From Acidimicrobiaceae bacterium (GTDB lineage: Bacteria > Actinomycetota > Acidimicrobiia > Acidimicrobiales > Ilumatobacteraceae): 64,000 bases of DNA. The stretch lies in assembly GCA_020637295.1 (NCBI GenBank), contig JACJWF010000004.1, positions 170,228 through 234,227 on the forward strand, read 5' to 3'. Below are positions 20,885 to 34,154 of this stretch, piece by piece. How positions within the stretch are numbered: the stretch's first letter is position 1; each line of letters starts with the position of its first letter. The notes beneath the pieces are model-generated. The model was not told the DNA's origin. It saw only the letters and a list, made by a program, of their open reading frames with translations, and searched no databases. The translations under genes were made by a program, and so were the position numbers.

Positions 20885-21463
20885 TCAGGAGTGCTGCGTG
20901 CGGTAGCGCCAGGTGCGGATGGAGTCCGGCCAGGCGCGGGGCGGCAGGCCGGCCTTGCGCCACAGCGCGCCCACCCACCCGGTGGCGTCGGGGATCTCCT
21001 CCCACACGGACGGCAGGAACGTGGCCCGGTGCCGTCCGGCCTCCACCAGCACGCCGTCCACGCCGGGGCGCAGCGTCGCCACGAGCGCGTCGTAGCCACC
21101 GACCTCGAACGGCTCCATCGGGGTCAGCACCGATACCTCGACCGAGAGGTCGTCCAACTCGTCCGGGCCCAGCGGCGGGAAGCGTGGGTCGTTGAACGCC
21201 GCTGCCCGCGCCCGGTCGGCGGCGGCCAGCGCCAGCGGGAGTTGCGGTGTCATCGTCCCGATGCAGCCGCGCAGCGCGCCGCCGCGGCGCAGGGTGACGA
21301 ACACCGCACCGTCGCGCCGCAGCGCGGCCGGCTCGTCGGCGGTGGAAGGGTCCCAATGATGACGGCGGGTGACGGCGTCGACGACGGCGCGGTGGGCGAT
21401 CGCTGCCAGCCGGGCGAGCTCGGCGCTGGTGAGGTCGGGGGCTGTGCTGGCGTGGGCGTTCAT
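20885..21463 (-). CDS. amrA: AmmeMemoRadiSam system protein A (AMMECR1 domain)
   Basis: GAVFVTLRRGGALRGCIGT...RATFLPSVWEE, 192 aa. ATGA overlap with the upstream MEMO-like gene. Confidence 0.85.
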   Translation of the reverse strand: MNAHASTAPDLTSAELARLAAIAHRAVVDAVTRRHHWDPSTADEPAALRRDGAVFVTLRRGGALRGCIGTMTPQLPLALAAADRARAAAFNDPRFPPLGPDELDDLSVEVSVLTPMEPFEVGGYDALVATLRPGVDGVLVEAGRHRATFLPSVWEEIPDATGWVGALWRKAGLPPRAWPDSIRTWRYRTQHS

Positions 21464-22266
21464 CGGATCTCGAAGCTCCCGTAGCCGACCACCCGGTCCT
21501 CCGGCCCGGCGGTGTCGCCCGACGTGCGCAGGTCCAGCAGGCGCACACGCTGGCCGTGACGCAGGCACAGCTCCATCGCCGCCCGCACCCCGCTGACACC
21601 GCAGGCCTGCTCGCCGCCCAGCCCCGCCCACTGCAGGGCGACGACGGCCTCGGCCGTGGCCAGGTCGATGGCCCGGGCCTCGTGCAGCGGGTGGTAGTGG
21701 CTGAGGTCGGTGGACACCACCACCAGCGTGTCCTCCTTGCCCCACCAGGGGGTGAGGGCGTCGGCGATCTGCGCCGTGCCGTTGCCGCCGGCGATGACCG
21801 GCACCAACTGCCACCCGCCGTCCAGGCTGCGCTGGAGGAAGGGGACGTGCACCTCCAGGCTGTGCTCCTCGGCGTGGGCGCGGTCGTCCACCACCACACC
21901 GGGCAGCGTGGCCATGGCGGCGCACGCCTCGGTGTCCACCTCCACATGCCCGAGTGGCGTCGCCCACGCGGCGGCGCTGCTGAGCGCCAGCCCGCGCACG
22001 GGCGCACGGTGCGGCACCCCGACCAGCACCACCCGCCGGATCTGCGCGGCCCAGGGGCGGACGAGGGCGTACGCCGTGGCGGCGACCGGGCCGGAGTAGA
22101 CGTAGCCGGCGTGGGGGGCGATCACCGCCACCGGGGGTCGGGTCGGGGTGCCGGTGGCCTGCGGCGGGCGGGCAGCGGCAAGCAACCCGTCGACCGTCCT
22201 GGCCAGTGCCTCCGGGTCGGCCGGGTAGAAGGTCCCCGCCAGTGCGGGCGGTCGAATGCGTGTCAT
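21460..22266 (-). CDS. amrB: AmmeMemoRadiSam system protein B (MEMO1-like)
   Basis: MTRIRPPALAGTFYPADPEAL...VIAPHAGYVYSGPVAA...STDLSHYH, 268 aa. Confidence 0.85.
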   Translation of the reverse strand: MTRIRPPALAGTFYPADPEALARTVDGLLAAARPPQATGTPTRPPVAVIAPHAGYVYSGPVAATAYALVRPWAAQIRRVVLVGVPHRAPVRGLALSSAAAWATPLGHVEVDTEACAAMATLPGVVVDDRAHAEEHSLEVHVPFLQRSLDGGWQLVPVIAGGNGTAQIADALTPWWGKEDTLVVVSTDLSHYHPLHEARAIDLATAEAVVALQWAGLGGEQACGVSGVRAAMELCLRHGQRVRLLDLRTSGDTAGPEDRVVGYGSFEIR

Positions 22267-22285
22267 CGAAACCACCTTCCAGTGC

Positions 22286-23413
22286 TCACGGAGCGTGTGC
22301 CGCAGCCACATCGGCCGGGCTCGACGACAGGCGCACCGGGCGCCGCCGCCTGCCCCACTCGCCGGGTGGGCCGTCGAACACCCCTGCAACCGGGGCGCCG
22401 CACTCGGTGCAGCGTCCGTCGCCCGTCAGCCGGTACGCATCGATGCGGTACCAGTCGCGCACCACGGTGGGCGCACCGCACTCCGGGCAGTGGGTGGTGC
22501 CGCCGACCGTGTCGTGCACATTGCCGGTGTACACGTAGCGCAGGCCGTTGGCGATGGCCACCCGGCGGGCCCGCCGCAGCGTCTCGGGCGGTGTGGGCGG
22601 CACGTCGAGCATCCGGAAGTCGGGGTGGAAGGCGCTGAAGTGCAGCGGCACGTCCGGGCCGAGGTGGTCCGCCACCCACGCGCTCAGCCGGGTGAGCTCG
22701 GCGTCGGAGTCGTTGTGCCCAGGGATGACGAGGGTGGTGACCTCCACCCACACCCCGTTGGCCACCAGCCACTCCAGGGTGTCCAGCACGGGCTGCAGGT
22801 GACCGCCGCACACATGGCGGTAGAAGTCCTCGGTGAACCCCTTGAGATCGATGTTCGCCGCATCGATGCGCGAGAATAGTTCCGCCCGCGGCCCCTCGTG
22901 CACGTAGCCGGCGCTCACCGCCACGGTGCGCAGGCCGGCCGCGTGGCAGGCGTCGGCCGTGTCCGCGGCGTACTCGAGGAAGACCACCGGGTCGTTGTAG
23001 GTGAAGGCAACGCTGGCGCAGCCTTGGGCGATCGCAGCGCGGGCGATGCCCTCCGGGCCGGCGGCATCGGCGAGGGTGTCCGTGCTGCGGCTCTTGGAGA
23101 TGTCCCAGTTCTGGCAGAAGCGACACGCCAGGTTGCAGCCGGCCGTCCCGAACGACAGCACGGACGAGCCGGGCAGGAAGTGGTTGAGTGGCTTCTTCTC
23201 GATCGGGTCCACGCAGAAGCCACTGCTGCGGCCGTACGTGGTGAGCACGATCTCGTCGTGCTCGCGGGCCCGCACGAAGCACAGCCCGCGCTGTCCCTCG
23301 CGCAGCGAGCACCCCCTCGGGCACACGTCGCAGCGGATCCGCCCGTCGTCCAGGCGGGTCCACCACCGTGTCGGGAAGCTCGCTGGCGGCTGTTCCACGC
23401 CTTCAGGATGCAC
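22286..23413 (-). CDS. amrS: AmmeMemoRadiSam system radical SAM enzyme
   Basis: CNLACRFCQNW (CX3CX2C), an N-terminal Cys motif IRCDVCPRGCSL, and a C-terminal CPECG...CTECG ribbon. I chose the GTG start at 23413 (alternative 23398) because the upstream ATGs would overlap the divergent lipoprotein gene. Confidence 0.8.
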   Translation of the reverse strand: MHPEGVEQPPASFPTRWWTRLDDGRIRCDVCPRGCSLREGQRGLCFVRAREHDEIVLTTYGRSSGFCVDPIEKKPLNHFLPGSSVLSFGTAGCNLACRFCQNWDISKSRSTDTLADAAGPEGIARAAIAQGCASVAFTYNDPVVFLEYAADTADACHAAGLRTVAVSAGYVHEGPRAELFSRIDAANIDLKGFTEDFYRHVCGGHLQPVLDTLEWLVANGVWVEVTTLVIPGHNDSDAELTRLSAWVADHLGPDVPLHFSAFHPDFRMLDVPPTPPETLRRARRVAIANGLRYVYTGNVHDTVGGTTHCPECGAPTVVRDWYRIDAYRLTGDGRCTECGAPVAGVFDGPPGEWGRRRRPVRLSSSPADVAAAHAP

Positions 23414-23492
23414 CCTCGGCGCCCGCCGCGTACAGCGCCCTTGGTCCTTCGCCGGGCCGGGTGCGGCGGGCGGCGCGGGGTACCATGCCGCG

Positions 23493-24155
23493 ATGCGAGG
23501 GGCGGGGAGGGCCATCACCGGGCTGTTCGGGGCTGTCATGGTCCTCATCACCGGGTGCTCCGCGGACTCCACGGTCACCGTGGTGCGCGACGCCGACGAC
23601 GTGCAGGTGATGTCGCCCGAGCAGGTGCTGCAGCAGCGGCTTCCGGCGGTCACCACCACGGTGCCGGGCGCCTCGGACAGTTCGGTGCCGGCCGGAGCCG
23701 GTCAGCCACCGGCCACCACCGCGGCGGCCGACACCATCCCGCTCAACCAGGACGACCGCCCGCCGGAGGTGCGCCTGTTCGCCGCGTTCGGGGAGTTCCG
23801 CGGCTGCCTGGAGGACAAGGGCTACGTGATCGAGGGCAACCTGCTGGACCCGAACAACCCGGCCATGCAGGACAGCGCGTACCGCGACGCGGTCATCACC
23901 TGCGCCGCCCGTTCGGACATCGTCGCCGTCCTCCAGGAGGTGCAGGCCACTCGGGCCAACCTCACGCCGGAGGAGGTGGAGCAGCGCAACGAGGTGTTCG
24001 TCGCGTTGCGCGACTGCCTGCGCGACAAGGGATGGACGGTGGAAGCCACCACCAGCGAGATCGGCCTCCTGGAGCCCACCGAGTTCCACGACGCCGACGG
24101 CGAGCTCGACGAGCGGGACATCAACCAGTGCCTGTCGGAGATGAACATCGGATGA
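23493..24155 (+). CDS. Lipoprotein with an internally duplicated 2-Cys module, function unknown
   Basis: Lipobox LITGC. Two copies of [FL]RxCLxDKG[YW]x[IV]E...C, at about aa 95-140 and 165-214. Confidence 0.7.
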   Translation: MRGAGRAITGLFGAVMVLITGCSADSTVTVVRDADDVQVMSPEQVLQQRLPAVTTTVPGASDSSVPAGAGQPPATTAAADTIPLNQDDRPPEVRLFAAFGEFRGCLEDKGYVIEGNLLDPNNPAMQDSAYRDAVITCAARSDIVAVLQEVQATRANLTPEEVEQRNEVFVALRDCLRDKGWTVEATTSEIGLLEPTEFHDADGELDERDINQCLSEMNIG

Positions 24156-24174
24156 CCAGTCAACGGGGAGACGG

Positions 24175-26343
24175 ATGAGGACCAGAACGGCCCTGATCGG
24201 GGGAGTGGTGGCCGTCGGCCTGGTCGGCGGCGGCCTGCTCATCGGCCGGGCGGCGACGGACGACAGTGCGCCGCGGCAGCTGCTGATCGTGCCCCGGCCG
24301 GTGGAGCGCCGCGACCTCGACGACGTGCTGACGATCAGCGGCGAGATCCGCCGCGACGAGATCCAGACGATCAACCTGCCGGTGGACGGCAAGGTCAGCA
24401 GCCTCGAGGTGGAGGACGGCGACACGATCGAGGAGGGCGACTCGCTGTTCGCCCTCGACGGCCGCACGTCGGTGGCCGTCGTCGGTGACTTCGCGTTCTA
24501 CCGCCGGCTGGACGTCGGCAGTGAGGGACCCGACGTCCGCCAGTTGGAGACCATCCTGGTGGCGGCCGGCTACCCGATCTCCTCCGTCGACACCCTGTAC
24601 ACGGAAGAGACCCGCCAGGCGCTGACGGCCTGGCAGGCGGATCACGGCTACGGCGGGGCCACCCCGGAGCCGGTGGAGACGATCACCGTCGGCCTGTCGC
24701 CCAACCAGGCCGGATACACCATCGGGAAGGCCAACACCGTCGCCTACTCGATCGTGCCCAGTGCCGCGCTGGGTGGGGCTCGTTCGCCCCACCTCCCCGA
24801 GAGCCGCCCCGCCGCCCCGCGGGGCACACCGCAGAAGCCGATCATCACGCTCGGCGCCGACCTCACCGAGGTGGTGGAGGGTGGCCAGGTGGTGTTCACG
24901 TTCGTGGCCAACCCGGCGCCGGCCAACGACATCACCGTGGACCTCACGATCGGCGGCGATGCCACCGGCGGCACGGACCCCGACGACGGGGCGGACTACC
25001 AGCAGATCACCAACAGCTTCCTGTTCCCCTCCGGGCAGACCAGCTACAGCATCAGCGTGCCGGTGTTCGTGGACGACGTGAAGGAGGACGGCGAGGAGAT
25101 CGTCGTCTCGCTGACGGACCAGTTCGGCAACGACCCCAACTATGTGGTCGGCCCGGCCAACCAGGCCCGGGTGACGATCCTCCCGAACGGCGACGACCTC
25201 GTGCCGGTCATCACGGTCACGTCGAACGCCAGCGTGGTGCGCGAAGGCGGCACCGTCACGTTCACGTTCCGCTCCACCGTGGAGTCCAACCAGCCGCTGG
25301 ACCTCGTGATCGCCCTGGGCGGCGGGGCGACCAACGGCTCCGACTACGTCGAAGTGGAACGCGACGACGTCACCATCCCCGCCGGGCAGACGTCGGCCAC
25401 CTTGCAGGTGCAGACCCGCGACGACGACCGTGTGGAGGGCGACGAGCGCATCGTCGTGGCCGTGGTGCCCAACCCGGACGACCCCCCGGGCAGTCCCAGC
25501 TACACGGTGGGCAACCCGGGCAGCGCCGCGGCCACCATCGAGAGCGACGACCTGCCGGAGCTCACCCTGCGCGGGGGCGGCGACATCCGCGAGGGCGGGT
25601 CGGCGTCGTTCACCATCGTCGCCAATGCGCCGGTGGCGGAGGACACCTCGGTCAACTACCAGGTGGGCGGCACCGCCCAGCCGGGCAGCGACTACGACAC
25701 CCTCACGGGCACGGTCATCCTCCCGGCGGGCCACAGCCAGATCACCGTTGCGATCACGACCATCGACGACGACGTGGTGTTCCTGCCGAGCGACATGGTG
25801 GTGGCCGACTGGCCGGCGCGGATCGGCACCGTCGACGTGGACGAGGGTGAGTTCGTGCTGCAGGGCGCCCCGGTGCTGACGCTCACCGAACCGGTGTTCA
25901 CGATCACGTTGGCGGTCAGCGCGTCGGATCGTGCCGAGTTGGAGGTGGGGCAGAAGGCGGAGGTCCACCTGGACGCTGCGGATGCCGACTTCACCGGCAT
26001 CATCGCCACCCTGGACGAGACGGCGACCGTGGACCAGAGCGGTGCCGAGACCTACGAGGGCACTGTGGAGGTGGAGGGCGAACTGGTGGCTGTGGACGGC
26101 GCCCGGGTCACCATCGACGTCACCCTGGCAGAACGGCTGGGCGTGCTGGTGGTGCCCGTGGCCGCCGTGCTGCGCTCCGCCGGAGGCGACCAGGTTCGGG
26201 TGATCAACGACGAAGGCACGATCAGCCGGGTCGATGTCACCATCGGCCTGATCGACGGCGAGTGGGTGGAGGTCGTCGACGGCCTGCGCGGCGACGAACT
26301 GGTGGTGGTGGACGTGGACCCGGAGGCCGACACCAGTGGGTGA
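24175..26343 (+). CDS. Membrane-fusion (HlyD/MacA-type) periplasmic adaptor with a peptidoglycan-binding segment and three Calx-beta-like modules
   Basis: N-terminal TM. Split lipoyl halves (INLPVDGKVSSLEVEDGDTIEEGDSLFALD ... ARIGTVDVDEGEFVLQGAPVLTL). PG_binding_1-like GPDVRQLETILVAAGY...TRQALTAWQADHGY. A C-terminal beta-barrel/MP domain. 722 aa. Confidence 0.75.
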   Translation: MRTRTALIGGVVAVGLVGGGLLIGRAATDDSAPRQLLIVPRPVERRDLDDVLTISGEIRRDEIQTINLPVDGKVSSLEVEDGDTIEEGDSLFALDGRTSVAVVGDFAFYRRLDVGSEGPDVRQLETILVAAGYPISSVDTLYTEETRQALTAWQADHGYGGATPEPVETITVGLSPNQAGYTIGKANTVAYSIVPSAALGGARSPHLPESRPAAPRGTPQKPIITLGADLTEVVEGGQVVFTFVANPAPANDITVDLTIGGDATGGTDPDDGADYQQITNSFLFPSGQTSYSISVPVFVDDVKEDGEEIVVSLTDQFGNDPNYVVGPANQARVTILPNGDDLVPVITVTSNASVVREGGTVTFTFRSTVESNQPLDLVIALGGGATNGSDYVEVERDDVTIPAGQTSATLQVQTRDDDRVEGDERIVVAVVPNPDDPPGSPSYTVGNPGSAAATIESDDLPELTLRGGGDIREGGSASFTIVANAPVAEDTSVNYQVGGTAQPGSDYDTLTGTVILPAGHSQITVAITTIDDDVVFLPSDMVVADWPARIGTVDVDEGEFVLQGAPVLTLTEPVFTITLAVSASDRAELEVGQKAEVHLDAADADFTGIIATLDETATVDQSGAETYEGTVEVEGELVAVDGARVTIDVTLAERLGVLVVPVAAVLRSAGGDQVRVINDEGTISRVDVTIGLIDGEWVEVVDGLRGDELVVVDVDPEADTSG
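24838..25779 (+). repeat. Three tandem coding repeats of about 105-115 aa (Calx-beta-like) inside the adaptor gene
   Basis: Each unit has xEGGxVxFT(F/I)...(D/G)xDY...(F/I/L)P(S/A)GQTSxx(I/L)xVxxxDDxxxEGxExI(V)V. The units span about aa 222-338, 343-458 and 461-535. Confidence 0.65.
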
Positions 26344-27043
26344 CGCGGACGTCCAGCCGGTCCTCGAACTGGAGCACGTGTCGCGGGTGTACGGGGACGG
26401 CGACGCTGCGGTCACCGCGCTGCACGACGTGTCGCTCCGCGTGATGCCCGGCGACTTCCTGTCGATCATGGGGCCATCCGGCTCCGGCAAGTCCACGATG
26501 CTCGGCCTGCTCGGCTGCCTGGACCTGCCGACCACCGGCACCATCCGGGTCGGCGGTCACGAGGTGACGGCGATGGACGATGCCGAGCGCAGTCGGGTGC
26601 GCGGCCGGGAGATCGGCTTCGTCTTCCAGCAGTTCCATCTCATCCCTCACCTGGATGCGATGGGCAATGTGGAGACCGCCCTGCTCTACCGTGGCCTGCG
26701 CCCGCGGGAACGCCGGGACCGGGCGATGCACGCGCTGGACCGCGTGGGCCTGGCCCACCGCCACGACCACCGGCCGGTGCAGTTGAGCGGCGGCGAGCAG
26801 CAGCGCGTGGCGCTGGCCCGCGCGCTGGTGACCGAGCCGCGCATCCTCCTCGGCGACGAGCCCACGGGCGCGCTGGACTCCAAGAACGCCGAGAACGTGA
26901 TGGAGATCTTCGCCTCGTTGCAGTCCCCTGAGCGGGCCGTGGTGCTGGTCACCCATGATCCCGGTGTCGGTGCCGCGGCGGAGCGCCGCGTGCGGATGCG
27001 CGACGGGGAGATCGTCGCCGACGAGCGGGCGGTCCGCGCGTGA
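26336..27043 (+). CDS. ABC transporter ATP-binding protein (MacB/LolD type)
   Basis: Walker A GPSGSGKST, signature LSGGEQQRVALARAL, Walker B ILLGDEPTGALD. GTG start overlaps the adaptor stop by 8 nt. Confidence 0.9.
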   Translation: MGDADVQPVLELEHVSRVYGDGDAAVTALHDVSLRVMPGDFLSIMGPSGSGKSTMLGLLGCLDLPTTGTIRVGGHEVTAMDDAERSRVRGREIGFVFQQFHLIPHLDAMGNVETALLYRGLRPRERRDRAMHALDRVGLAHRHDHRPVQLSGGEQQRVALARALVTEPRILLGDEPTGALDSKNAENVMEIFASLQSPERAVVLVTHDPGVGAAAERRVRMRDGEIVADERAVRA

Positions 27044-28227
27044 GACGGGTGCGCGAACTGATCACGGTGGCCCTGGTTGGCCTGTTCGCCCGCAAGGTGC
27101 GCACCGCGCTGCTGCTGCTCGGGCCCACCATCGGTGTGGCTGCGATCATCGCCGCGGTGGGCCTGACGGACAGCGCCAAGGGCGATCTGAAGCGCAAGGT
27201 GGCCGAACTGGGCACGAACCTGATCGAGGCGTCCGCGGCGAGTGCGTTCGGGTCGCAGAACCCGGTGCTGCCCACCGACGCGGTGGAGCGGGCGCGGACG
27301 GTCGTGACGGTGGACGGCGTGTCGGCCGTGCGCGAGTTGAGCGACATCGTCGTCACCCCGTACGAGGAGGCCACGGAGAAGTTCGAGGTCGTGCCGGTGC
27401 CGGTGCTCGCCGCCGATGCCGAACTGCCGGGGGTGCTCCAGGTGCCCATGATCAGCGGCCGCTGGCTGGACCCGTTCGACGAGGGGCCGGGCGTGCGCAG
27501 TGCCGTGATCGGTATCGGGCTGGCCCGCGAGTTCGATTACCTCCCCGGTGAGGTCCGCTCGATCGTGCTCGACGACCACGAGTACGCCGTGATCGGCGTG
27601 CTCGGTCAGGTCGAACTGGAGCCGGCCTTCGACAACGCCGTGTTCATCTCCTTCCGCGCTGCGGACGACGACTTCGTGGAGGACGACATCCAGCCGAACA
27701 AGCTCTACGTCCGCGCCGCGGACGGGACCGAGAGCGACACGGCCGAGGCGCTGAAGGTGGCGGTGGGTCTCGGCGGGCCCACCGAGGTGAACACGGAGTT
27801 GAAGTCCGAAGCGCTGGAGTTGGCGTCGCAGAGCGACCGCCAACTACAACTCATCGTCGTGGCGATGGGCCTGCTGGCGATCGTGGTCGGTGGCATCGGC
27901 ATCGCCAACGTGATGTCGATCTCCGTCATCCAGCGCTCCAGCGAGATCGGCATCCGCCGCGCGCTCGGCCACACCCGCGGCACCATCGCGCTGCAGTTCC
28001 TGTTCGAGGCCATCGTCGTCGGTGTGCTGGGCGGGATGCTGGGCGTGCTCACGGGTGTGGCCGCGATCGGCGTCGGCGTGGCGATGGCCGGATGGGTGTT
28101 CACCCTCCAGCCGGTGCTGGTGCCCGGCGGCATCATCCTGGCCGTCGCCATCTCCGTGCTCGCCGGCCTGTACCCGGCGGTTCGAGCCGCCCGCCTGGAG
28201 CCGCTGGAGACCTTGCGCCTCGGCTGA
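27040..28227 (+). CDS. ABC transporter permease, FtsX/MacB type
   Basis: TM1, then a large extracytoplasmic domain, then three C-terminal TMs. RRALGHTRGTIALQF motif. 4-nt overlap with the ATPase gene. Confidence 0.85.
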   Translation: MRRVRELITVALVGLFARKVRTALLLLGPTIGVAAIIAAVGLTDSAKGDLKRKVAELGTNLIEASAASAFGSQNPVLPTDAVERARTVVTVDGVSAVRELSDIVVTPYEEATEKFEVVPVPVLAADAELPGVLQVPMISGRWLDPFDEGPGVRSAVIGIGLAREFDYLPGEVRSIVLDDHEYAVIGVLGQVELEPAFDNAVFISFRAADDDFVEDDIQPNKLYVRAADGTESDTAEALKVAVGLGGPTEVNTELKSEALELASQSDRQLQLIVVAMGLLAIVVGGIGIANVMSISVIQRSSEIGIRRALGHTRGTIALQFLFEAIVVGVLGGMLGVLTGVAAIGVGVAMAGWVFTLQPVLVPGGIILAVAISVLAGLYPAVRAARLEPLETLRLG

Positions 28228-28315
28228 GCCGCCCGGACGGACCGGGGGCAAGTTCTCGACGACGCTTGGACGTGCTCTCACCTTCCTCCAACCGTCGCGG
28301 CGCACCGTGTGCGTC

Positions 28316-29275
28316 ATGTTCAGCGACGCACGGTTCCGGGCCATGGGCTCCGACGTGCACCTGGTGGTGCACGGCAGCCAGGCGCTGGTGGATCTGGCCG
28401 TCACCCGCCTGGCGGCCCTTGAGGCGGCATGGAGCCGCTTCCGGCCGGACAGCGAGATCAGCCGCCTCAACGCCGGTGCGGGCCGCTGGCTGGAAGTGTC
28501 TGCCCCGACAGCATTGCTGCTGCAGCGGGCCGTCGAGGGCTGGCGGCTGACCGGCGGGGCGTACGACCCGCTGCTGCTGCACGCCCTGCAGGCGGCGGGC
28601 TACGACCGCTCGTTCGAGGCACTGGACCCTGCGCTCCCTGCAGTTCCGCCGGCCCGCTGGTGGAACCGGCCGCTGCCTCCGGAGATCGAGGTGAACGGCA
28701 GCGCGGCCCGCATCCCCGCCGGCGCCGGGTTCGACCCGGGCGGGATCGGCAAGGGCCTGGCAGCCGACCTGGTGACGGCCGACCTGATGGCCGCCGGCGC
28801 GGTGGGCGTGTGCGTGTCCGTCGGCGGCGACGTGAGGGTGCGCGGCACGGCGCCGGGCGGCACCCCCTGGACGATCGCCGTCGAGCACCCGCTGGCGGCG
28901 GCACCGGTGACCCTCGTGGGGCTGTGGGACGGCGCGCTCGCCACGTCCAGCGTGCTCCGCCGGGTGTGGCAGGCGGGTGGCCGGCCGCGACACCACATCA
29001 TCGAACCCGACACGGGTGTGCCCGCACGGACCACCGCCGACCTGGCCAGCGTGATCGCCGGCGACGGGTGGCTGGCCGAGGTGCTCACCAAGCCCGTCCT
29101 GCTCCGCCCGGCCGACCGCCGCTTCGACAACGTGCCGAGCGGTTGCGCGGCGCTCGCCGTGGTAGCCGACGGCACCGTGGCTGCCACGGCATCGATGAGC
29201 CGATTCACCGGGGGCGCCCTCGTCCCCACCGTTCTGCGCTCCGTCGAGCGCACGCATCCAGGAGGTGCACGATGA
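28316..29275 (+). CDS. apbE: ApbE-family FAD:protein FMN transferase, with no signal peptide or lipobox
   Basis: MFSDARFRAMGSDVHLVV...EISRLN...GAYDP...DPGGIGKGLAAD...HHIIEPDTG. The N-terminus starts directly in the conserved core. Confidence 0.75.
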   Translation: MFSDARFRAMGSDVHLVVHGSQALVDLAVTRLAALEAAWSRFRPDSEISRLNAGAGRWLEVSAPTALLLQRAVEGWRLTGGAYDPLLLHALQAAGYDRSFEALDPALPAVPPARWWNRPLPPEIEVNGSAARIPAGAGFDPGGIGKGLAADLVTADLMAAGAVGVCVSVGGDVRVRGTAPGGTPWTIAVEHPLAAAPVTLVGLWDGALATSSVLRRVWQAGGRPRHHIIEPDTGVPARTTADLASVIAGDGWLAEVLTKPVLLRPADRRFDNVPSGCAALAVVADGTVAATASMSRFTGGALVPTVLRSVERTHPGGAR

Positions 29276-29610
29276 ACGAACCGTTCGATTCCTCCCGCTG
29301 GGATCCGCCGTACGGTCGGGTGCCGGTGTCAGCGGCGCCACCGGCATTCGACCGGCGCCCGCGGCGACGCCCGTGGCGGACTGCCGCTGCGGGCGCCGTC
29401 GCCGCCGTCTCCGGTGCGGCCGTCGCCGTCGCCGTGGTGGCGGTGGTGGCCCCGACGTTCGCCGACGACGGGCACGACGACGACGGCGTCAGCATCGAGT
29501 CGCACCACGGGGCCGAGCACGACGAGGCGGAGCACAGCGTGACCCGCTCGGCGGCGCCGACCCCGGCCCAGCCGTCGGCCCAGCCGACGACCGGGAGCCA
29601 CAGCAGTTGA
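29272..29610 (+). CDS. Small bitopic membrane protein with a His/Asp/Glu-rich exterior tail
   Basis: GGAGG Shine-Dalgarno (SD) sequence 6 nt upstream and ATGA overlap with apbE. Arg-rich N-terminus (RRPRRRPWR), one TM (AAAGAVAAVSGAAVAVAVVAVVAP), then DDGHDDDGVSIESHHGAEHDEAEH. 112 aa. Confidence 0.55.
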   Translation: MNEPFDSSRWDPPYGRVPVSAAPPAFDRRPRRRPWRTAAAGAVAAVSGAAVAVAVVAVVAPTFADDGHDDDGVSIESHHGAEHDEAEHSVTRSAAPTPAQPSAQPTTGSHSS

Positions 29611-30170
29611 GCCGTCAACCCCTCGCGCCCACCCGTGCCGCCCTCGGCAGCCGCCGGCTGTCCGCGCTGGCGGCCGCCTCCCCGCTCGCCGCGGTCCTGC
29701 TGGCTGCCGCTGCCGGGTCCGGCACGGGTGGGCCGTCCACTGCTGCCGGCGCGGCTGGCGACACTGCATCCGGCGTCGCTGCGCCGGCCATGACTGCGGC
29801 GGTGCCCACCGTTGCGCCGTCGCCGACCACCGCCCCGTTGGCAGCGGCAGCGCCAGTCACCGAGCCTGCGCCCACGTACGCCGTGTGCTCGAACTGGTAC
29901 ACGGTGGCGGCGGGCGACTCGTGGTACGCCATCGCCTCGGCTGCATCGGTGACCGCCGACGAACTGCTGGCGCTCAACGGCGGCGACGGCGCCGCTGCCT
30001 TGTATCCAGGCGACGAGATCTGCCTCCCCGCCGGTGCCGTCGTGACCACCACGACGCCGACCACCGTGGCAGCCGCCGCCACGGTGCCTGCCACCCCGGC
30101 CGCACCAGCCACCACCGCCGCGCCCGCGGCGCCGACGACGACGCCGCATACGGTCAGCGCCAGCAGCTGA
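29607..30170 (+). CDS. Secreted LysM-domain protein with no catalytic domain
   Basis: TTG start in a TTGA overlap with the previous stop. Tat-like leader GSRRLSALAAASPLAAVLLAAAAG. LysM domain YTVAAGDSWYAIASAASVTADELLALNG. Thr/Pro/Ala-rich tail. Confidence 0.6.
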   Translation: MSRQPLAPTRAALGSRRLSALAAASPLAAVLLAAAAGSGTGGPSTAAGAAGDTASGVAAPAMTAAVPTVAPSPTTAPLAAAAPVTEPAPTYAVCSNWYTVAAGDSWYAIASAASVTADELLALNGGDGAAALYPGDEICLPAGAVVTTTTPTTVAAAATVPATPAAPATTAAPAAPTTTPHTVSASS

Positions 30171-31674: not shown

Positions 31675-32313
31675 CTAGCGCCCCAGCATGCTGTCGTACA
31701 TCGCCCGCACGGTGGCGGTCACGTGGGCCGGCGCGCAGCGGGGATGGCCGCTCTGGAACGGCGGGGCTGGGTCGTACTCCATGTCCAGCTGTGCTGCCTG
31801 TGCGTACTCGGTGGTGCTCAGCCGCTCCAGCAGGCGCAGGCCCATATCGATCCCCGCGGACACCCCGGCAGCCGTCATCACCTTGCCGTGTTCGACCACC
31901 CGCTCCTGGGTGGGGATGGCGCCGTAGCGGACCAAGTCGTCCATGCAGTACCAGTGGGTGGTCGCCCTCACGCCCTCCAGCACCCCGGCAGCGCCGAGGA
32001 GCAACGACCCTGTGCACACTGAGGTGGTCCATGTGGTTGTGCGATGTATCGCCCGGATCCAGTCCACCAGCGGTCCACCCTCCTCGGCCATCGTGATGGC
32101 CGCCAAGCCGCCGGGCACCAGCAGCACGTCCAGCGCGTCGATCTCGTCGATGCTGCGCGTCGCCATCATCGTGAACGAACCGCCGTTGCCCACTGGGCCG
32201 GCCTGCTCGGCGACGAACGCGAAGTCCGCTCCCGGCACGCCGGCCACCGAGTGGTACGGCCCGATGGCATCGAGCGCGGTGAAGCCGGGATACAGGAGGA
32301 TGGCGATCTTCAT
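31675..32313 (-). CDS. DJ-1/PfpI-family protein
   Basis: MKIAILLYPGFTALDAIGPY...LLVPGG...SVCTGSLLLGAAG (nucleophile Cys), 212 aa. ATGA overlap with the upstream ABC ATPase gene. Confidence 0.85.
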   Translation of the reverse strand: MKIAILLYPGFTALDAIGPYHSVAGVPGADFAFVAEQAGPVGNGGSFTMMATRSIDEIDALDVLLVPGGLAAITMAEEGGPLVDWIRAIHRTTTWTTSVCTGSLLLGAAGVLEGVRATTHWYCMDDLVRYGAIPTQERVVEHGKVMTAAGVSAGIDMGLRLLERLSTTEYAQAAQLDMEYDPAPPFQSGHPRCAPAHVTATVRAMYDSMLGR

Positions 32314-33101
32314 GTGGGTTCCTTCGGTGTGGTGGAGAGCGGGGCGAACGTCAGGTGCAACGCACCGGTGAGCGGGTGTGTGCCGACATGGACACGCACC
32401 CGGAACACGTCCTCGATGAGCGCGGGTGTCAGGACGTCCGCCGGTGCACCAGTCACCACTGCGTGCCCACCTCGCATGACGGTGACGCGGTCGCAAACGG
32501 CCGCGGCGTGGTCCAGGTCGTGGAGCGCCACCACAGTGGTGAGACCGGCGTCGCGGACCAGTCCCAGGAGCTCGAGTTGGGCGTGGACGTCGAGGTGGTT
32601 CGTCGGCTCGTCAAGGAGCAGCACGGGCGCCTGCTGAGCGACGGCGCGGGCCAGGTACACACGTTGGCGTTCGCCGCCGGACAAGGTGGCTACCATCCGC
32701 CTGGCAGCCCACGTCATGCCGACCTCGGCTATGGCCGCGTCGACGAGCCGGTCGTCCTCTTGCGCGTAGTGGCCGAACAGCCCGCCGTGCGCCGTGCGGC
32801 CCATCGCCACCGTGTCGCGGACGGTGAAATCCAGGTCTGCCGTGGCGTCTTGGGTGACGACCGCCCGCCGATGGGCCGCAACGCGGGCCGACAGGTCGCG
32901 CCAGAGATCGGCACCTCCGAGGAGGACGGTTCCAGCAGCGGGGCGCAGCGCCCGGTACAGGCAGCGCAGCAGTGTGCTCTTGCCCGAGCCGTTGGGCCCG
33001 ACGAGTCCGTGCACCTCGCCCGGCGCGACCACCATGGTCGCGTCGTGGACGATCACGACATCGTCGATGGCGAGCCGGACCCCGCGCACCTCGACGTTCA
33101 T
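32310..33101 (-). CDS. Iron-siderophore/cobalamin-type ABC transporter ATP-binding protein (FepC/FecE-like)
   Basis: GPNGSGKSTLL, LSGGERQRVYLARAV, LLLDEPTNHLD, 263 aa. Confidence 0.85.
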   Translation of the reverse strand: MNVEVRGVRLAIDDVVIVHDATMVVAPGEVHGLVGPNGSGKSTLLRCLYRALRPAAGTVLLGGADLWRDLSARVAAHRRAVVTQDATADLDFTVRDTVAMGRTAHGGLFGHYAQEDDRLVDAAIAEVGMTWAARRMVATLSGGERQRVYLARAVAQQAPVLLLDEPTNHLDVHAQLELLGLVRDAGLTTVVALHDLDHAAAVCDRVTVMRGGHAVVTGAPADVLTPALIEDVFRVRVHVGTHPLTGALHLTFAPLSTTPKEPT

Positions 33102-34114
33102 GCCGTTCCCTTCGATGCACGACGCATGAGCGCGAGGAAGAACGGGGCGCCGAGCACGGCGGTGAAGATGCCCACCGGATACTCGTTGGGGCGGTCGAAG
33201 ACGCGGCTCAGCAGGTCGACGAGAACCATGAAGGACGCCCCGCCGAGCGCGGCCACCGGCAGGACTCGTCGGTGGTCCGGGCCGACTACCAGGCGGGTCA
33301 TGTGCGGCACGAGCAGTCCGACGAAGCCGATCCCGCCGGCCACCGCGACGGCCGTCGCCGTCAGCAACGAGGCGGCGACCAGCAGTTCGATGCGGAACCG
33401 GTTGGTGTCCACGCCCAGGCCGCTGGCGGTGTCGTCGCCGGTGGTCATGACGTTCATCCATCGCCCGCGGACCACCAGCCACGCCGTGGTGAGGACCATC
33501 ACGACCGTGGGGATTCGCAGGTCGTCCCATCCGGCCCCGGCGAAGCTGCCGAGCATCCAGAACATGGTGCCGCGCAGCTCCAGCGGGTTGACCTGCAGCT
33601 GGACCAGTGAGGTGAGCGCAGTGGTCAGGTAGCTCACCGCCACCCCGGCAAGGACCAGGCGGGCGGGGCCGATCCGCCCTGCCCGCTGGGCGAGTGTGAA
33701 GACCAGGATGAGCGTGATCGTCGCCCCGGCGAAGGCGGCCCCGCTGATGCCGAGCCCTCCGAGCGCCGACGAGCCGAGCAGTACGGCGAGCACTGCGCCG
33801 AACGAGGCGCCGGAGGACACGCCGAGGACGTACGGATCGGCGAGCGGGTTCCGGGCCAGCACCTGCAGCGCAGTGCCGGCGACTGCCAGCCCGCCGCCGA
33901 CGACGGCGGCCAGCAGCACTCGAGGTGTACGGAACTGCCAGATGATCTGGTCGTCGCCGCCCTTGACCACGTCGCCGATCCCGAGATGGGACAGGACGAC
34001 CCGCCACACGGTCCCGAGCGGCAACGTGACCGTCCCGAACGAGATGCCGACCAGAACGCTGAGCGCGAGCACGATGGCCAGTGCGGCGACGAGCACCGAC
34101 AGGCCCTTGCCCAT
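33098..34114 (-). CDS. FecCD-family ABC permease
   Basis: RTPRVLLAAVVGGGLAVAGTALQVLARNPLADPYVLGVSSGA...RRVLPVAALGGA. 4-nt overlap with the ATPase gene. Confidence 0.85.
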   Translation of the reverse strand: MGKGLSVLVAALAIVLALSVLVGISFGTVTLPLGTVWRVVLSHLGIGDVVKGGDDQIIWQFRTPRVLLAAVVGGGLAVAGTALQVLARNPLADPYVLGVSSGASFGAVLAVLLGSSALGGLGISGAAFAGATITLILVFTLAQRAGRIGPARLVLAGVAVSYLTTALTSLVQLQVNPLELRGTMFWMLGSFAGAGWDDLRIPTVVMVLTTAWLVVRGRWMNVMTTGDDTASGLGVDTNRFRIELLVAASLLTATAVAVAGGIGFVGLLVPHMTRLVVGPDHRRVLPVAALGGASFMVLVDLLSRVFDRPNEYPVGIFTAVLGAPFFLALMRRASKGTA

Positions 34115-34154
34115 GACGAGGAAGGGCCGCCGGTCGGGAGTCGGACGGACGGGC

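Follow-up and report, generated by a model that had tools for sequence, protein, structure and literature searches.

The element studied here is a gene at positions 24175–26343 of the forward strand of a 64,000-nucleotide stretch of DNA (G+C content ~72%) from an Acidimicrobiaceae bacterium, the whole of which we call the window. The gene encodes a protein of 722 residues, which was identified as a membrane-fusion (periplasmic adaptor) protein by translation of its open reading frame (ORF), Pfam and NCBIfam searches, an AlphaFold2 model and Foldseek. It is flanked by genes for a predicted lipoprotein on one side and for the ATPase and permease of an ATP-binding cassette (ABC) transporter on the other. 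The site of the coiled-coil α-hairpin, a common feature of such adaptors, is filled in this protein by ~435 residues of peptidoglycan-binding (PG-binding) and Calx-beta modules, and our comparisons suggest that one Calx-beta module is split between the two ends of the insert.

The adaptor has an N-terminal hydrophobic membrane anchor at approximately residues 6–25 (ALIGGVVAVGLVGGGLLIG; 24190–24249, +), which was read from the sequence; the equivalent stretch of a marine homologue, described below, is modelled by AlphaFold2 as a helix (residues 2–20). The lipoyl (barrel-sandwich hybrid) domain is in two halves. The first half covers residues 61–104 (24355–24486, +), where Pfam places Biotin_lipoyl_2 (residues 64–95) and HlyD_D23 (residues 51–111) and AlphaFold2 places strands at residues 62–67, 72–77, 90–94 and 97–103. 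The second half, MVVADWPARIGTV…, covers residues 541–575 (25795–25899, +) and was identified by Pfam HlyD_3 (residues 542–636). The model has strands on both sides of the insert, and the WPARVG junction of the second half is common to relatives that have no Calx-beta modules. The β-barrel and membrane-proximal domains follow at residues 576–715 (25900–26319, +), as identified by Foldseek and by the NCBIfam family TIGR01730 (RND_mfp), which matches residues 536–713 with positions 131–308 of its 322-position profile (E = 3e-23).

The AlphaFold2 model was built from 65 homologues and has a mean predicted local distance difference test score (pLDDT) of 80.7. It is all-β except for two helices, at residues 119–130 and 144–156, both of which belong to the PG-binding domain. 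The model contains no coiled-coil α-hairpin between the lipoyl halves, and Pfam identified no coiled-coil family. Foldseek matched the adaptor core to MacA, AcrA, MexA and BesA (E = 2e-9 to 1e-6). The protein is thus a member of the HlyD–MacA–AcrA superfamily which was tested for one common feature, the hairpin, and lacks it. It retains the membrane anchor, the membrane-proximal domain, the β-barrel and the split lipoyl domain, which are the parts that ring a MacB-type transporter.

The PG_binding_1 domain (residues 115–160; 24517–24654, +) was identified by Pfam, by a match in the PDB and by AlphaFold2. The Pfam match (PF01471) covers residues 118–158 and profile positions 2–42 of 57, and scores 28.9 bits against a curated cut-off of 23; the last third of the profile (positions 43–57) has no match in the adaptor. 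In relatives the score ranges from 23.5 to 43.5 bits. A PDB sequence search matched 5nm7_G, ‘Peptidoglycan-binding domain 1’ (E = 0.0011). The two helices are modelled with a pLDDT of 85–91, and the domain contains many invariant residues.

Pfam Calx-beta (PF03160) matches three stretches of the insert with 78.3 bits against a cut-off of 27 (E = 6e-22), single repeats score 31–38 bits each, and both Foldseek and a PDB sequence search match the repeats to the Ca2+-binding domains (CBDs) of NCX1 and CALX. A hidden Markov model (HMM) of the repeats sets the modules at residues 222–342, 344–460 and 461–556. Module 1 (residues 222–342; 24838–25200, +; profile positions 8–117 of 119) and module 2 (residues 343–460; 25201–25554, +; positions 15–118 of 119) are complete, each with the seven-strand sandwich in one continuous stretch. 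Module 3 (residues 461–540; 25555–25794, +) is not: it consists of strands A–E and a conserved junction (…DDDVVFLPSD), and matches profile positions 20–84 of 119. There are also weak Pfam side-matches to LapA, Big_7 and DUF5006.

The EGG / DY / DDxxxExxE motif of the repeats corresponds to the Ca2+ ligands E385, D421, D447, E451 and E454 of NCX1 CBD1, for which the full published set is E385, D421, D446/447, E451, E454 and D498–500 (PMC3386913). In tandem Calx-beta domains, Ca2+ makes the junction between domains rigid, and the Ca2+-bound form is extended and rigid (PMC3386913). We counted the conservation of residues over 120 homologues. Repeats 1 and 2 have invariant or almost invariant residues at the positions of E385, D421, D447, E451, E454 and D500: the core ligand positions of module 1, six in all, are invariant apart from the near-invariant D341 (112/120), and those of module 2 are conserved in the family. 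The compared ligand positions of module 2 are acidic in the window protein (E357, D390, D416–418, E421, E424 and D458/D459), with S457, the equivalent of D498, as the sole non-acidic one. In the window's clade, the F–G loop of module 1 (QFGNDPNY) hardly varies. In repeat 3, the invariant residues F536 and S539 stand where NCX1 has E451 and E454; its predicted ligands are an E, a D and a DDD cluster, together with E165 and E168 from an upstream segment.

Much of this domain structure had been proposed in an earlier note on the same DNA, which described two lipoyl halves separated by a PG_binding_1-like segment and three tandem repeats of ~110 residues resembling Calx-beta (24838–25779, which is residues 222–535). 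Pfam, NCBIfam and AlphaFold2 agree on the separation, the only helices in the model are those of the PG-binding domain, both insert families score above their curated Pfam cut-offs, and the Ca2+-ligand residues are conserved across the homologues. The description of the repeats holds for the first two, which are complete, but not for the third, of which only strands A–E are present. The earlier note passed over the conserved residues 165–196, which contain an ExxE motif and two strands, F and G.

This segment (24667–24762, +) lies directly after the PG-binding domain and ~300 residues upstream of repeat 3. AlphaFold2 models it as a β-hairpin (strands 168–175 and 188–194, pLDDT 82–86). On the basis of the model, hhalign and a fusion test, we identify it as the detached piece of Calx-beta module 3, made up of ExxE (E165 and E168) and strands F and G. 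With hhalign it aligns with the ExxE-F-G part of repeat 2 with a probability of 93.7% (E = 2e-7) and with that of repeat 1 with a probability of 83.9% (E = 8e-6); the reversed control gave ~1%, and there was no match with repeat 3. In the fusion test, repeat 3 (strands A–E) was joined to its own residues 164–196 in 120 family members and scored with an HMM made from the complete repeats 1 and 2 only. The fusions scored 62.5 ± 6.2 bits and reached the end of the HMM in 120/120 cases, the segment adding 16 bits. Scores with a shuffled hairpin, a reversed hairpin and no hairpin were 46.5, 46.0 and 45.7 bits, respectively; the end of the HMM was never reached by the shuffled or unfused sequences and was reached by 7% of the reversed ones. 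The native sequence downstream of repeat 3 gave 49.1 bits and never reached the end, and does not supply strands F–G. A weak match of the artificial fusion to DUF4989 rose to 23.3 bits, from 18.1 (reversed control, 18.5).

The occurrence of the segment follows that of the Calx-beta modules: it is present in every Calx-bearing relative and in no Calx-free relative. Residues E165, E168, E473 and D532, which would contribute to a composite site built from both pieces, occur all together in 113/120 sequences. In a clade of seven (P0067, P0074, P0075, P0077, P0078, P0082 and P0084) all four are replaced (by G, Q, R and V), and the ligand sets of repeats 1 and 2 are intact in six of these seven. This clade resembles a ‘knock-out’ of the composite site made by nature; one further representative has lost ligands jointly in a second pattern. 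The insert reads, in order, as ExxE with strands F–G, a flexible linker, two complete modules, and strands A–E with DDD. We conclude from these comparisons that it is best seen as an out-of-phase slice of a Calx-beta array, the two half-modules of which can rebuild one predicted domain.

The linker (residues 197–221; 24763–24837, +) is Pro-rich and is the only flexible, poorly conserved stretch, with a pLDDT below 50 over residues 197–220 and a mean conservation of 0.27. In relatives it is 8–47 residues long, regardless of whether there are 3, 6 or 12 modules. Because both ends of the insert are attached to the lipoyl domain, and because the linker does not grow with the number of modules, we infer that the Calx array is a loop that starts and ends at the composite module, not a free rod. 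A free straight stalk would be barely possible with three modules and impossible with longer arrays.

We then consider how widely this arrangement occurs. The window-type adaptor has 606 homologous protein clusters, of which the best 120 are 686–794 residues long and 54–100% identical, and a marine sister form has 483 clusters at E ≤ 1e-10. Their database names are generic, such as ‘Calx-beta domain-containing protein’ or ‘HlyD family efflux transporter periplasmic adaptor subunit’. A search with residues 36–200 against 1.84 billion representatives found the unit of lipoyl half 1 and PG_binding_1 at the head of proteins of widely differing length. Modules in these proteins were counted using the family HMM and Pfam, which gave a graded series: no modules (336–386 residues, with PG_binding_1 leading straight into the ‘…WPARVG…’ of lipoyl half 2), two (651 residues), three (about 726–740), four (813–897), five (914–962), six (about 1026–1047) and twelve (1705 residues, in which Pfam finds 11 stretches, E = 5.5e-85). 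Examples of the series are P0143 (L050:5925-11042); P0137, P0144, P0151 and P0179; and P0193, P0202 and P0259 (L048:6001-7047). Because the series is graded and includes Calx-free members, the PG-binding domain at the hairpin position is the ancestral or base state of a wider class of ~350-residue adaptors, not peculiar to the 722-residue protein, and the Calx array is an add-on of variable size.

The marine Acidimicrobiales form (L023:7875-10730; also L022–L034, P0124 and P0139) has the same order of domains as the window protein. Nearly all of its best 120 clusters are 912–1008 residues long, and its module 1 has an insert of ~260 residues in the F–G loop. AlphaFold2 predicts long helices in this insert at residues 316–365, 381–429, 456–477, 483–502 and 505–578, with a local pLDDT of ~63–85; the overall pLDDT of the model is 51.9, and we therefore used its secondary structure and not its geometry. 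On this model, a coiled-coil-like projection can coexist with the Calx loop, nested in a loop of module 1.

Two further proteins from the searches have unusual arrangements. In P0138 (1126 residues), the Calx modules are preceded by a second PG-binding-like stretch and by three further β modules of ~110 residues (‘VSPxxLxFxxxNWxxxQxVTVxGVDD’) that have no Pfam assignment. The adaptor-like P0245 (1007 residues) contains PG_binding_1, a long Ala/Gln-rich and probably helical region, and a C-terminal domain containing Cys; the possibility that this C-terminal region is a fusion with the lipoprotein encoded upstream of the adaptor was dropped, the best BLASTP match having E = 8.2.

The transporter genes lie immediately downstream of the adaptor. 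The ABC ATPase (26336–27043, +) has a MacB/LolD-like nucleotide-binding domain identified by Pfam ABC_tran (114 bits, E = 1e-32), and its sequence contains recognisable Walker A, signature, Walker B and H-loop motifs. Its best NCBIfam matches are MacB, LolD, DarD and FtsE. The permease (27040–28227, +) has a MacB-like periplasmic core and an FtsX transmembrane domain (MacB_PCD, 74.4 bits; FtsX, 61.2 bits; both, like ABC_tran, above their cut-offs). The best NCBIfam match is MacB for ATPase and permease alike, and the transporter is a MacB-type (type VII) ABC transporter, formed by the ATPase and the MacB_PCD/FtsX permease.

Upstream of the adaptor is the gene for a predicted lipoprotein of 220 residues (23493–24155, +), defined by its start, its lipobox (LITG|C, Cys22) and synteny. 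Residues C22, C105, C137, C175 and C213 are invariant, four of them in the mature part. An identical 220-residue gene call in NCBI carries the name ‘hypothetical protein’, and Pfam domains are absent from all 219 homologues; the lipoprotein itself had no match in Pfam or in sequence and profile searches of the PDB. It is duplicated in the marine clade. Homologues lie upstream of both a Calx-free adaptor (L048, E = 3e-36) and a 12-module adaptor (L050, E = 4e-49), and because of this the lipoprotein is, as judged from its neighbourhoods, a fourth conserved component of the cassette.

We compared the cassette across 47 loci. The order of lipoprotein, adaptor, ABC ATPase and MacB_PCD/FtsX permease is kept in forms with 0, 3 and 12 modules. 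The ATPase and permease follow the adaptor in nearly all of the ~40 Acidimicrobiia loci, and a lipoprotein homologue precedes the adaptor wherever a locus includes upstream sequence. Within the window, the adaptor stop overlaps the ATPase start by 8 nucleotides, ATPase and permease overlap by 4 nucleotides, and a gap of 19 nucleotides separates lipoprotein and adaptor; these junctions suggest co-translation. In a scan of 23200–28500, nothing resembling a promoter was found, and sites resembling terminators were no more frequent than expected by chance.

Several neighbouring genes were also identified. Divergent from the lipoprotein gene, overlapping ORFs at 20885–23659 (−) encode AMMECR1, Memo and radical-SAM domains, a trio of the AmmeMemoRadiSam type, which in other loci lies outside the cassette. 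A gene of the ApbE family (FAD:protein FMN transferase, where FAD and FMN are flavin adenine dinucleotide and flavin mononucleotide) lies downstream of the permease at about 28300–29275 (+) and adjoins the cassette in the closest loci only (L001 and L003). It is followed by a gene for a Pro/Ala-rich protein with a LysM domain (29265–30170, +). A second ORF with an ABC-ATPase domain, at 32313–34154 (−), is distant from the cassette ATPase (57 bits).

The loci closest to the window come from metagenome-assembled genomes (MAGs) of Ilumatobacteraceae, Acidimicrobiaceae and other Acidimicrobiia, with up to 91% identity. The host lineage belongs to the Actinomycetota, in the kingdom Bacillati, and bacteria of this lineage have one membrane. 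No gene for an outer-membrane factor of the TolC family was found among the Pfam-annotated genes in 13 kb around one Calx-free locus (L048); whole genomes were not searched. The earlier note had proposed that the insert replaces a TolC-docking hairpin. This presumes a cell with two membranes, and is the wrong frame for a protein from Acidimicrobiia because the lineage has one. We note that some public records (L005, L017 and L038; P0040 and P0459) are labelled as Bifidobacterium, Verrucomicrobiaceae or Pseudomonas MAGs; these labels are probably binning or labelling errors.

The explanation that we favour, with a probability of roughly 0.55, is that the four-gene cassette encodes a transporter whose adaptor forms a PG-anchored ring bearing a Ca2+-stiffened Calx loop, and which expels or releases a substrate. 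The two partial ends of the insert would fold into one module beside the lipoyl and PG-binding domains; this would bring the ends of the insert together, so that the remaining modules would hang off as a closed loop. By analogy with NCX1, the clusters of acidic residues where modules meet, and with them the composite cluster (E165, E168, E473, D506 and D531–533), may bind Ca2+ from the medium, which would lock the composite module and stiffen the loop as in NCX1 CBD12. The adaptor would ring the periplasmic domain of the permease, as MacA does in MacB-type systems, and the PG-binding domains would anchor this ring to the wall over the transporter. Mechanotransmission in the style of MacB could then transfer the substrate from the membrane's outer face into the wall or across it, and the Calx loops would act as a Ca2+-stiffened collar or spacer, its size set by the number of modules (0 to 12 in relatives).

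A number of observations weigh against this explanation. The binding of Ca2+ and of peptidoglycan, the assembly of hexamers and transport itself are predictions, and the single membrane of these MAG lineages is assigned by taxonomy and not by observation of cells. The match to TIGR01730, at 82.3 bits, is below the curated whole-protein cut-off of 94.9. The predicted template modelling score (pTM) of the AlphaFold2 model is 0.39, so that the arrangement of domains in it is undefined, and the packing of residues 165–196 on residues 461–535 is inferred from sequence only. The Pfam Calx-beta match was not longer on the artificial fusion (31.6 against 31.4 bits), and a family-specific HMM was therefore needed. 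The correlated loss of the four ligands amounts to one clear lineage and one representative, which is few independent events. In a mean-field direct coupling analysis of residues 160–197 against repeat 3, the top pairs were E165/E168 with E473/D532, strand F with C, and G with A′; however, controls with repeats 1 and 2 ranked as high (effective number of sequences ~50) and there was no discrimination, so that we do not count coevolution as evidence.

A rather unlikely alternative is that the cassette performs FtsEX-like mechanotransmission and not export. ATP hydrolysis by the MacB-type ABC transporter would drive movement of the wall-anchored adaptor, and this movement would activate or inactivate a partner outside the cytoplasm, perhaps the lipoprotein or a wall hydrolase; the Calx loop would be a partner-binding or Ca2+-sensing element. 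This fits a permease of the FtsX/MacB type, an ATPase that is near FtsE and LolD as well as MacB, a PG-binding domain that points to work on the wall, a lipoprotein as obligate neighbour of the 0-, 3- and 12-module forms, and the lack of an evident substrate gene near the cassette. It fits less well with the adaptor, which retains the lipoyl, β-barrel and membrane-proximal domains, the parts from which a channel ring is built around MacB, or with the lipoprotein, which has no hydrolase or other known domain. To our knowledge, moreover, FtsEX systems have coiled-coil partners and no HlyD-type adaptor.

We also consider it doubtful that the insert is a self-closing ‘lariat’, in which bridging of the composite site by Ca2+ is required for the two half-domains to come together again. 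Extracellular Ca2+ would then hold the adaptor's PG-binding side against lipoyl half 2, and would switch the geometry of the ring and the activity of the pump. If true, this would be a bacterial, extracytoplasmic counterpart of the regulation of NCX by Ca2+ through its CBD domains, and would show a general route for inserting long tandem-repeat arrays into loops of other proteins.

The straight stalk proposed in the earlier note, a PG-tethered, Ca2+-stiffened Calx rod rising from the lipoyl ring in place of a TolC-docking hairpin, is improbable. The domains and ligand residues are as described there, tandem Calx-beta domains with bound Ca2+ are indeed extended and rigid (PMC3386913), and a fully stretched 25-residue linker plus the PG-binding domain could just span the ~12 nm that we estimate for three modules. 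However, the lipoyl domain is where the chain both departs for the array and must come back from it, with a linker that is no longer than 47 residues even with 6 or 12 modules; module 3 is completed by a segment beside the PG-binding domain, which puts both ends of the insert in one domain; and the lineage has no TolC to dock. Many large bacterial surface proteins contain Calx-beta arrays, and a last alternative makes the Calx loop a binding surface (for wall polysaccharide, the surface layer, another cell or secreted cargo), its reach or specificity tuned by module number and the marine helical insert and the adaptor merely its anchor; in spite of the weak LapA, Big_7 and DUF5006 side-matches, the widely varying number of modules and the nearly invariant F–G loop of module 1, which is the exact site of the marine insert, we think this the least probable of all, because the array always lies within a complete adaptor in a complete ABC cassette, no carbohydrate-binding or adhesin domain reaches a curated cut-off, and a three-module loop, with an estimated contour of ~13 nm, may not clear the wall.

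Proteins of the ‘periplasmic adaptor’ type in bacteria with one membrane are an acknowledged puzzle. The sequences described here form a large and abundant class of hairpin-less adaptors in freshwater, marine and soil Acidimicrobiia, which would engage the wall directly by a predicted PG-binding domain and carry an adjustable loop of 0 to 12 modules with predicted Ca2+ sites. They provide a natural series for testing what role an adaptor's distal part has in cells without an outer-membrane duct. They also offer a clean example of a tandem-repeat array placed in a host domain by means of a split, circularly permuted module, and they flag a lipoprotein of unassigned family as a probable fourth, obligate component.

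A review of periplasmic adaptor proteins in 2015 expected those of Gram-positive bacteria to be hairpin-less, yet found that the known ones keep the hairpin, and named BesA as the one hairpin-less adaptor (PMC4446572). No paper linking Calx-beta or PG_binding_1 to HlyD-type adaptors came up in our literature searches, nor did a relevant one on periplasmic adaptor proteins, Actinobacteria and peptidoglycan-binding; reviews of 2015, 2021 and 2026 do not mention such adaptors. The suggestion in the earlier note that the architecture is undescribed is thus right for the papers found but not for the databases, which hold the 606 and 483 clusters: the design is absent from the former, yet common among entries from uncultured Acidimicrobiia.

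Among the closest known systems is MacA of MacAB-TolC (Escherichia coli, 5NIK/9QGY; A. actinomycetemcomitans, 4DK0), which also works with a MacB-type ABC transporter and has the same anchor, split lipoyl domain, β-barrel and membrane-proximal domain. Foldseek matches it to the window adaptor with E = 2e-9 to 6e-7, a root-mean-square deviation of 3.8–4.5 over ~175 columns and 22–23% identity. Unlike MacA, the window adaptor has no α-hairpin, its lineage has no TolC partner, and its ATPase and permease are encoded by separate genes. BesA of Borrelia burgdorferi (4KKT) resembles it in the absence of the coiled-coil hairpin (PMC4446572) and in structure (E ~1e-8, target-normalised TM (template modelling) score 0.46–0.48). 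However, BesA serves a resistance-nodulation-division (RND) pump with an outer-membrane channel in a cell with two membranes, and has nothing at the hairpin site, whereas the window adaptor serves an ABC pump and has the site filled. YknX of Bacillus and Spr0693 of S. pneumoniae are HlyD-type adaptors of FtsX/MacB-type ABC transporters in bacteria with one membrane, as here (PMC4446572), but both retain a prominent α-hairpin, which the window adaptor lacks, adding PG-binding and Calx-beta modules.

Also close in design are the Calx-free adaptors of ~350 residues (P0193, P0202, P0259 and P0236, the last named ‘peptidoglycan-binding protein [Dehalococcoidia MAG]’), which are represented by database entries only. 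Lipoyl half 1, PG_binding_1 and the ‘WPARVG’ lipoyl half 2 occur in them in the same order, and their cassette also consists of a homologous lipoprotein, an ABC ATPase and a MacB_PCD/FtsX permease, but they have neither the segment 165–196 nor the linker or Calx-beta modules. For the modules themselves the comparison is with CBD1–CBD2 of NCX1 and CALX (2FWS, 3US9 and 3RB5), which belong to the same fold family and have the conserved acidic ligand positions at the module junctions. The CBDs regulate a eukaryotic exchanger from the cytoplasm, whereas the modules of the window adaptor are predicted to be extracytoplasmic and number three (0–12 in relatives), and one of them appears to be split and circularly permuted.

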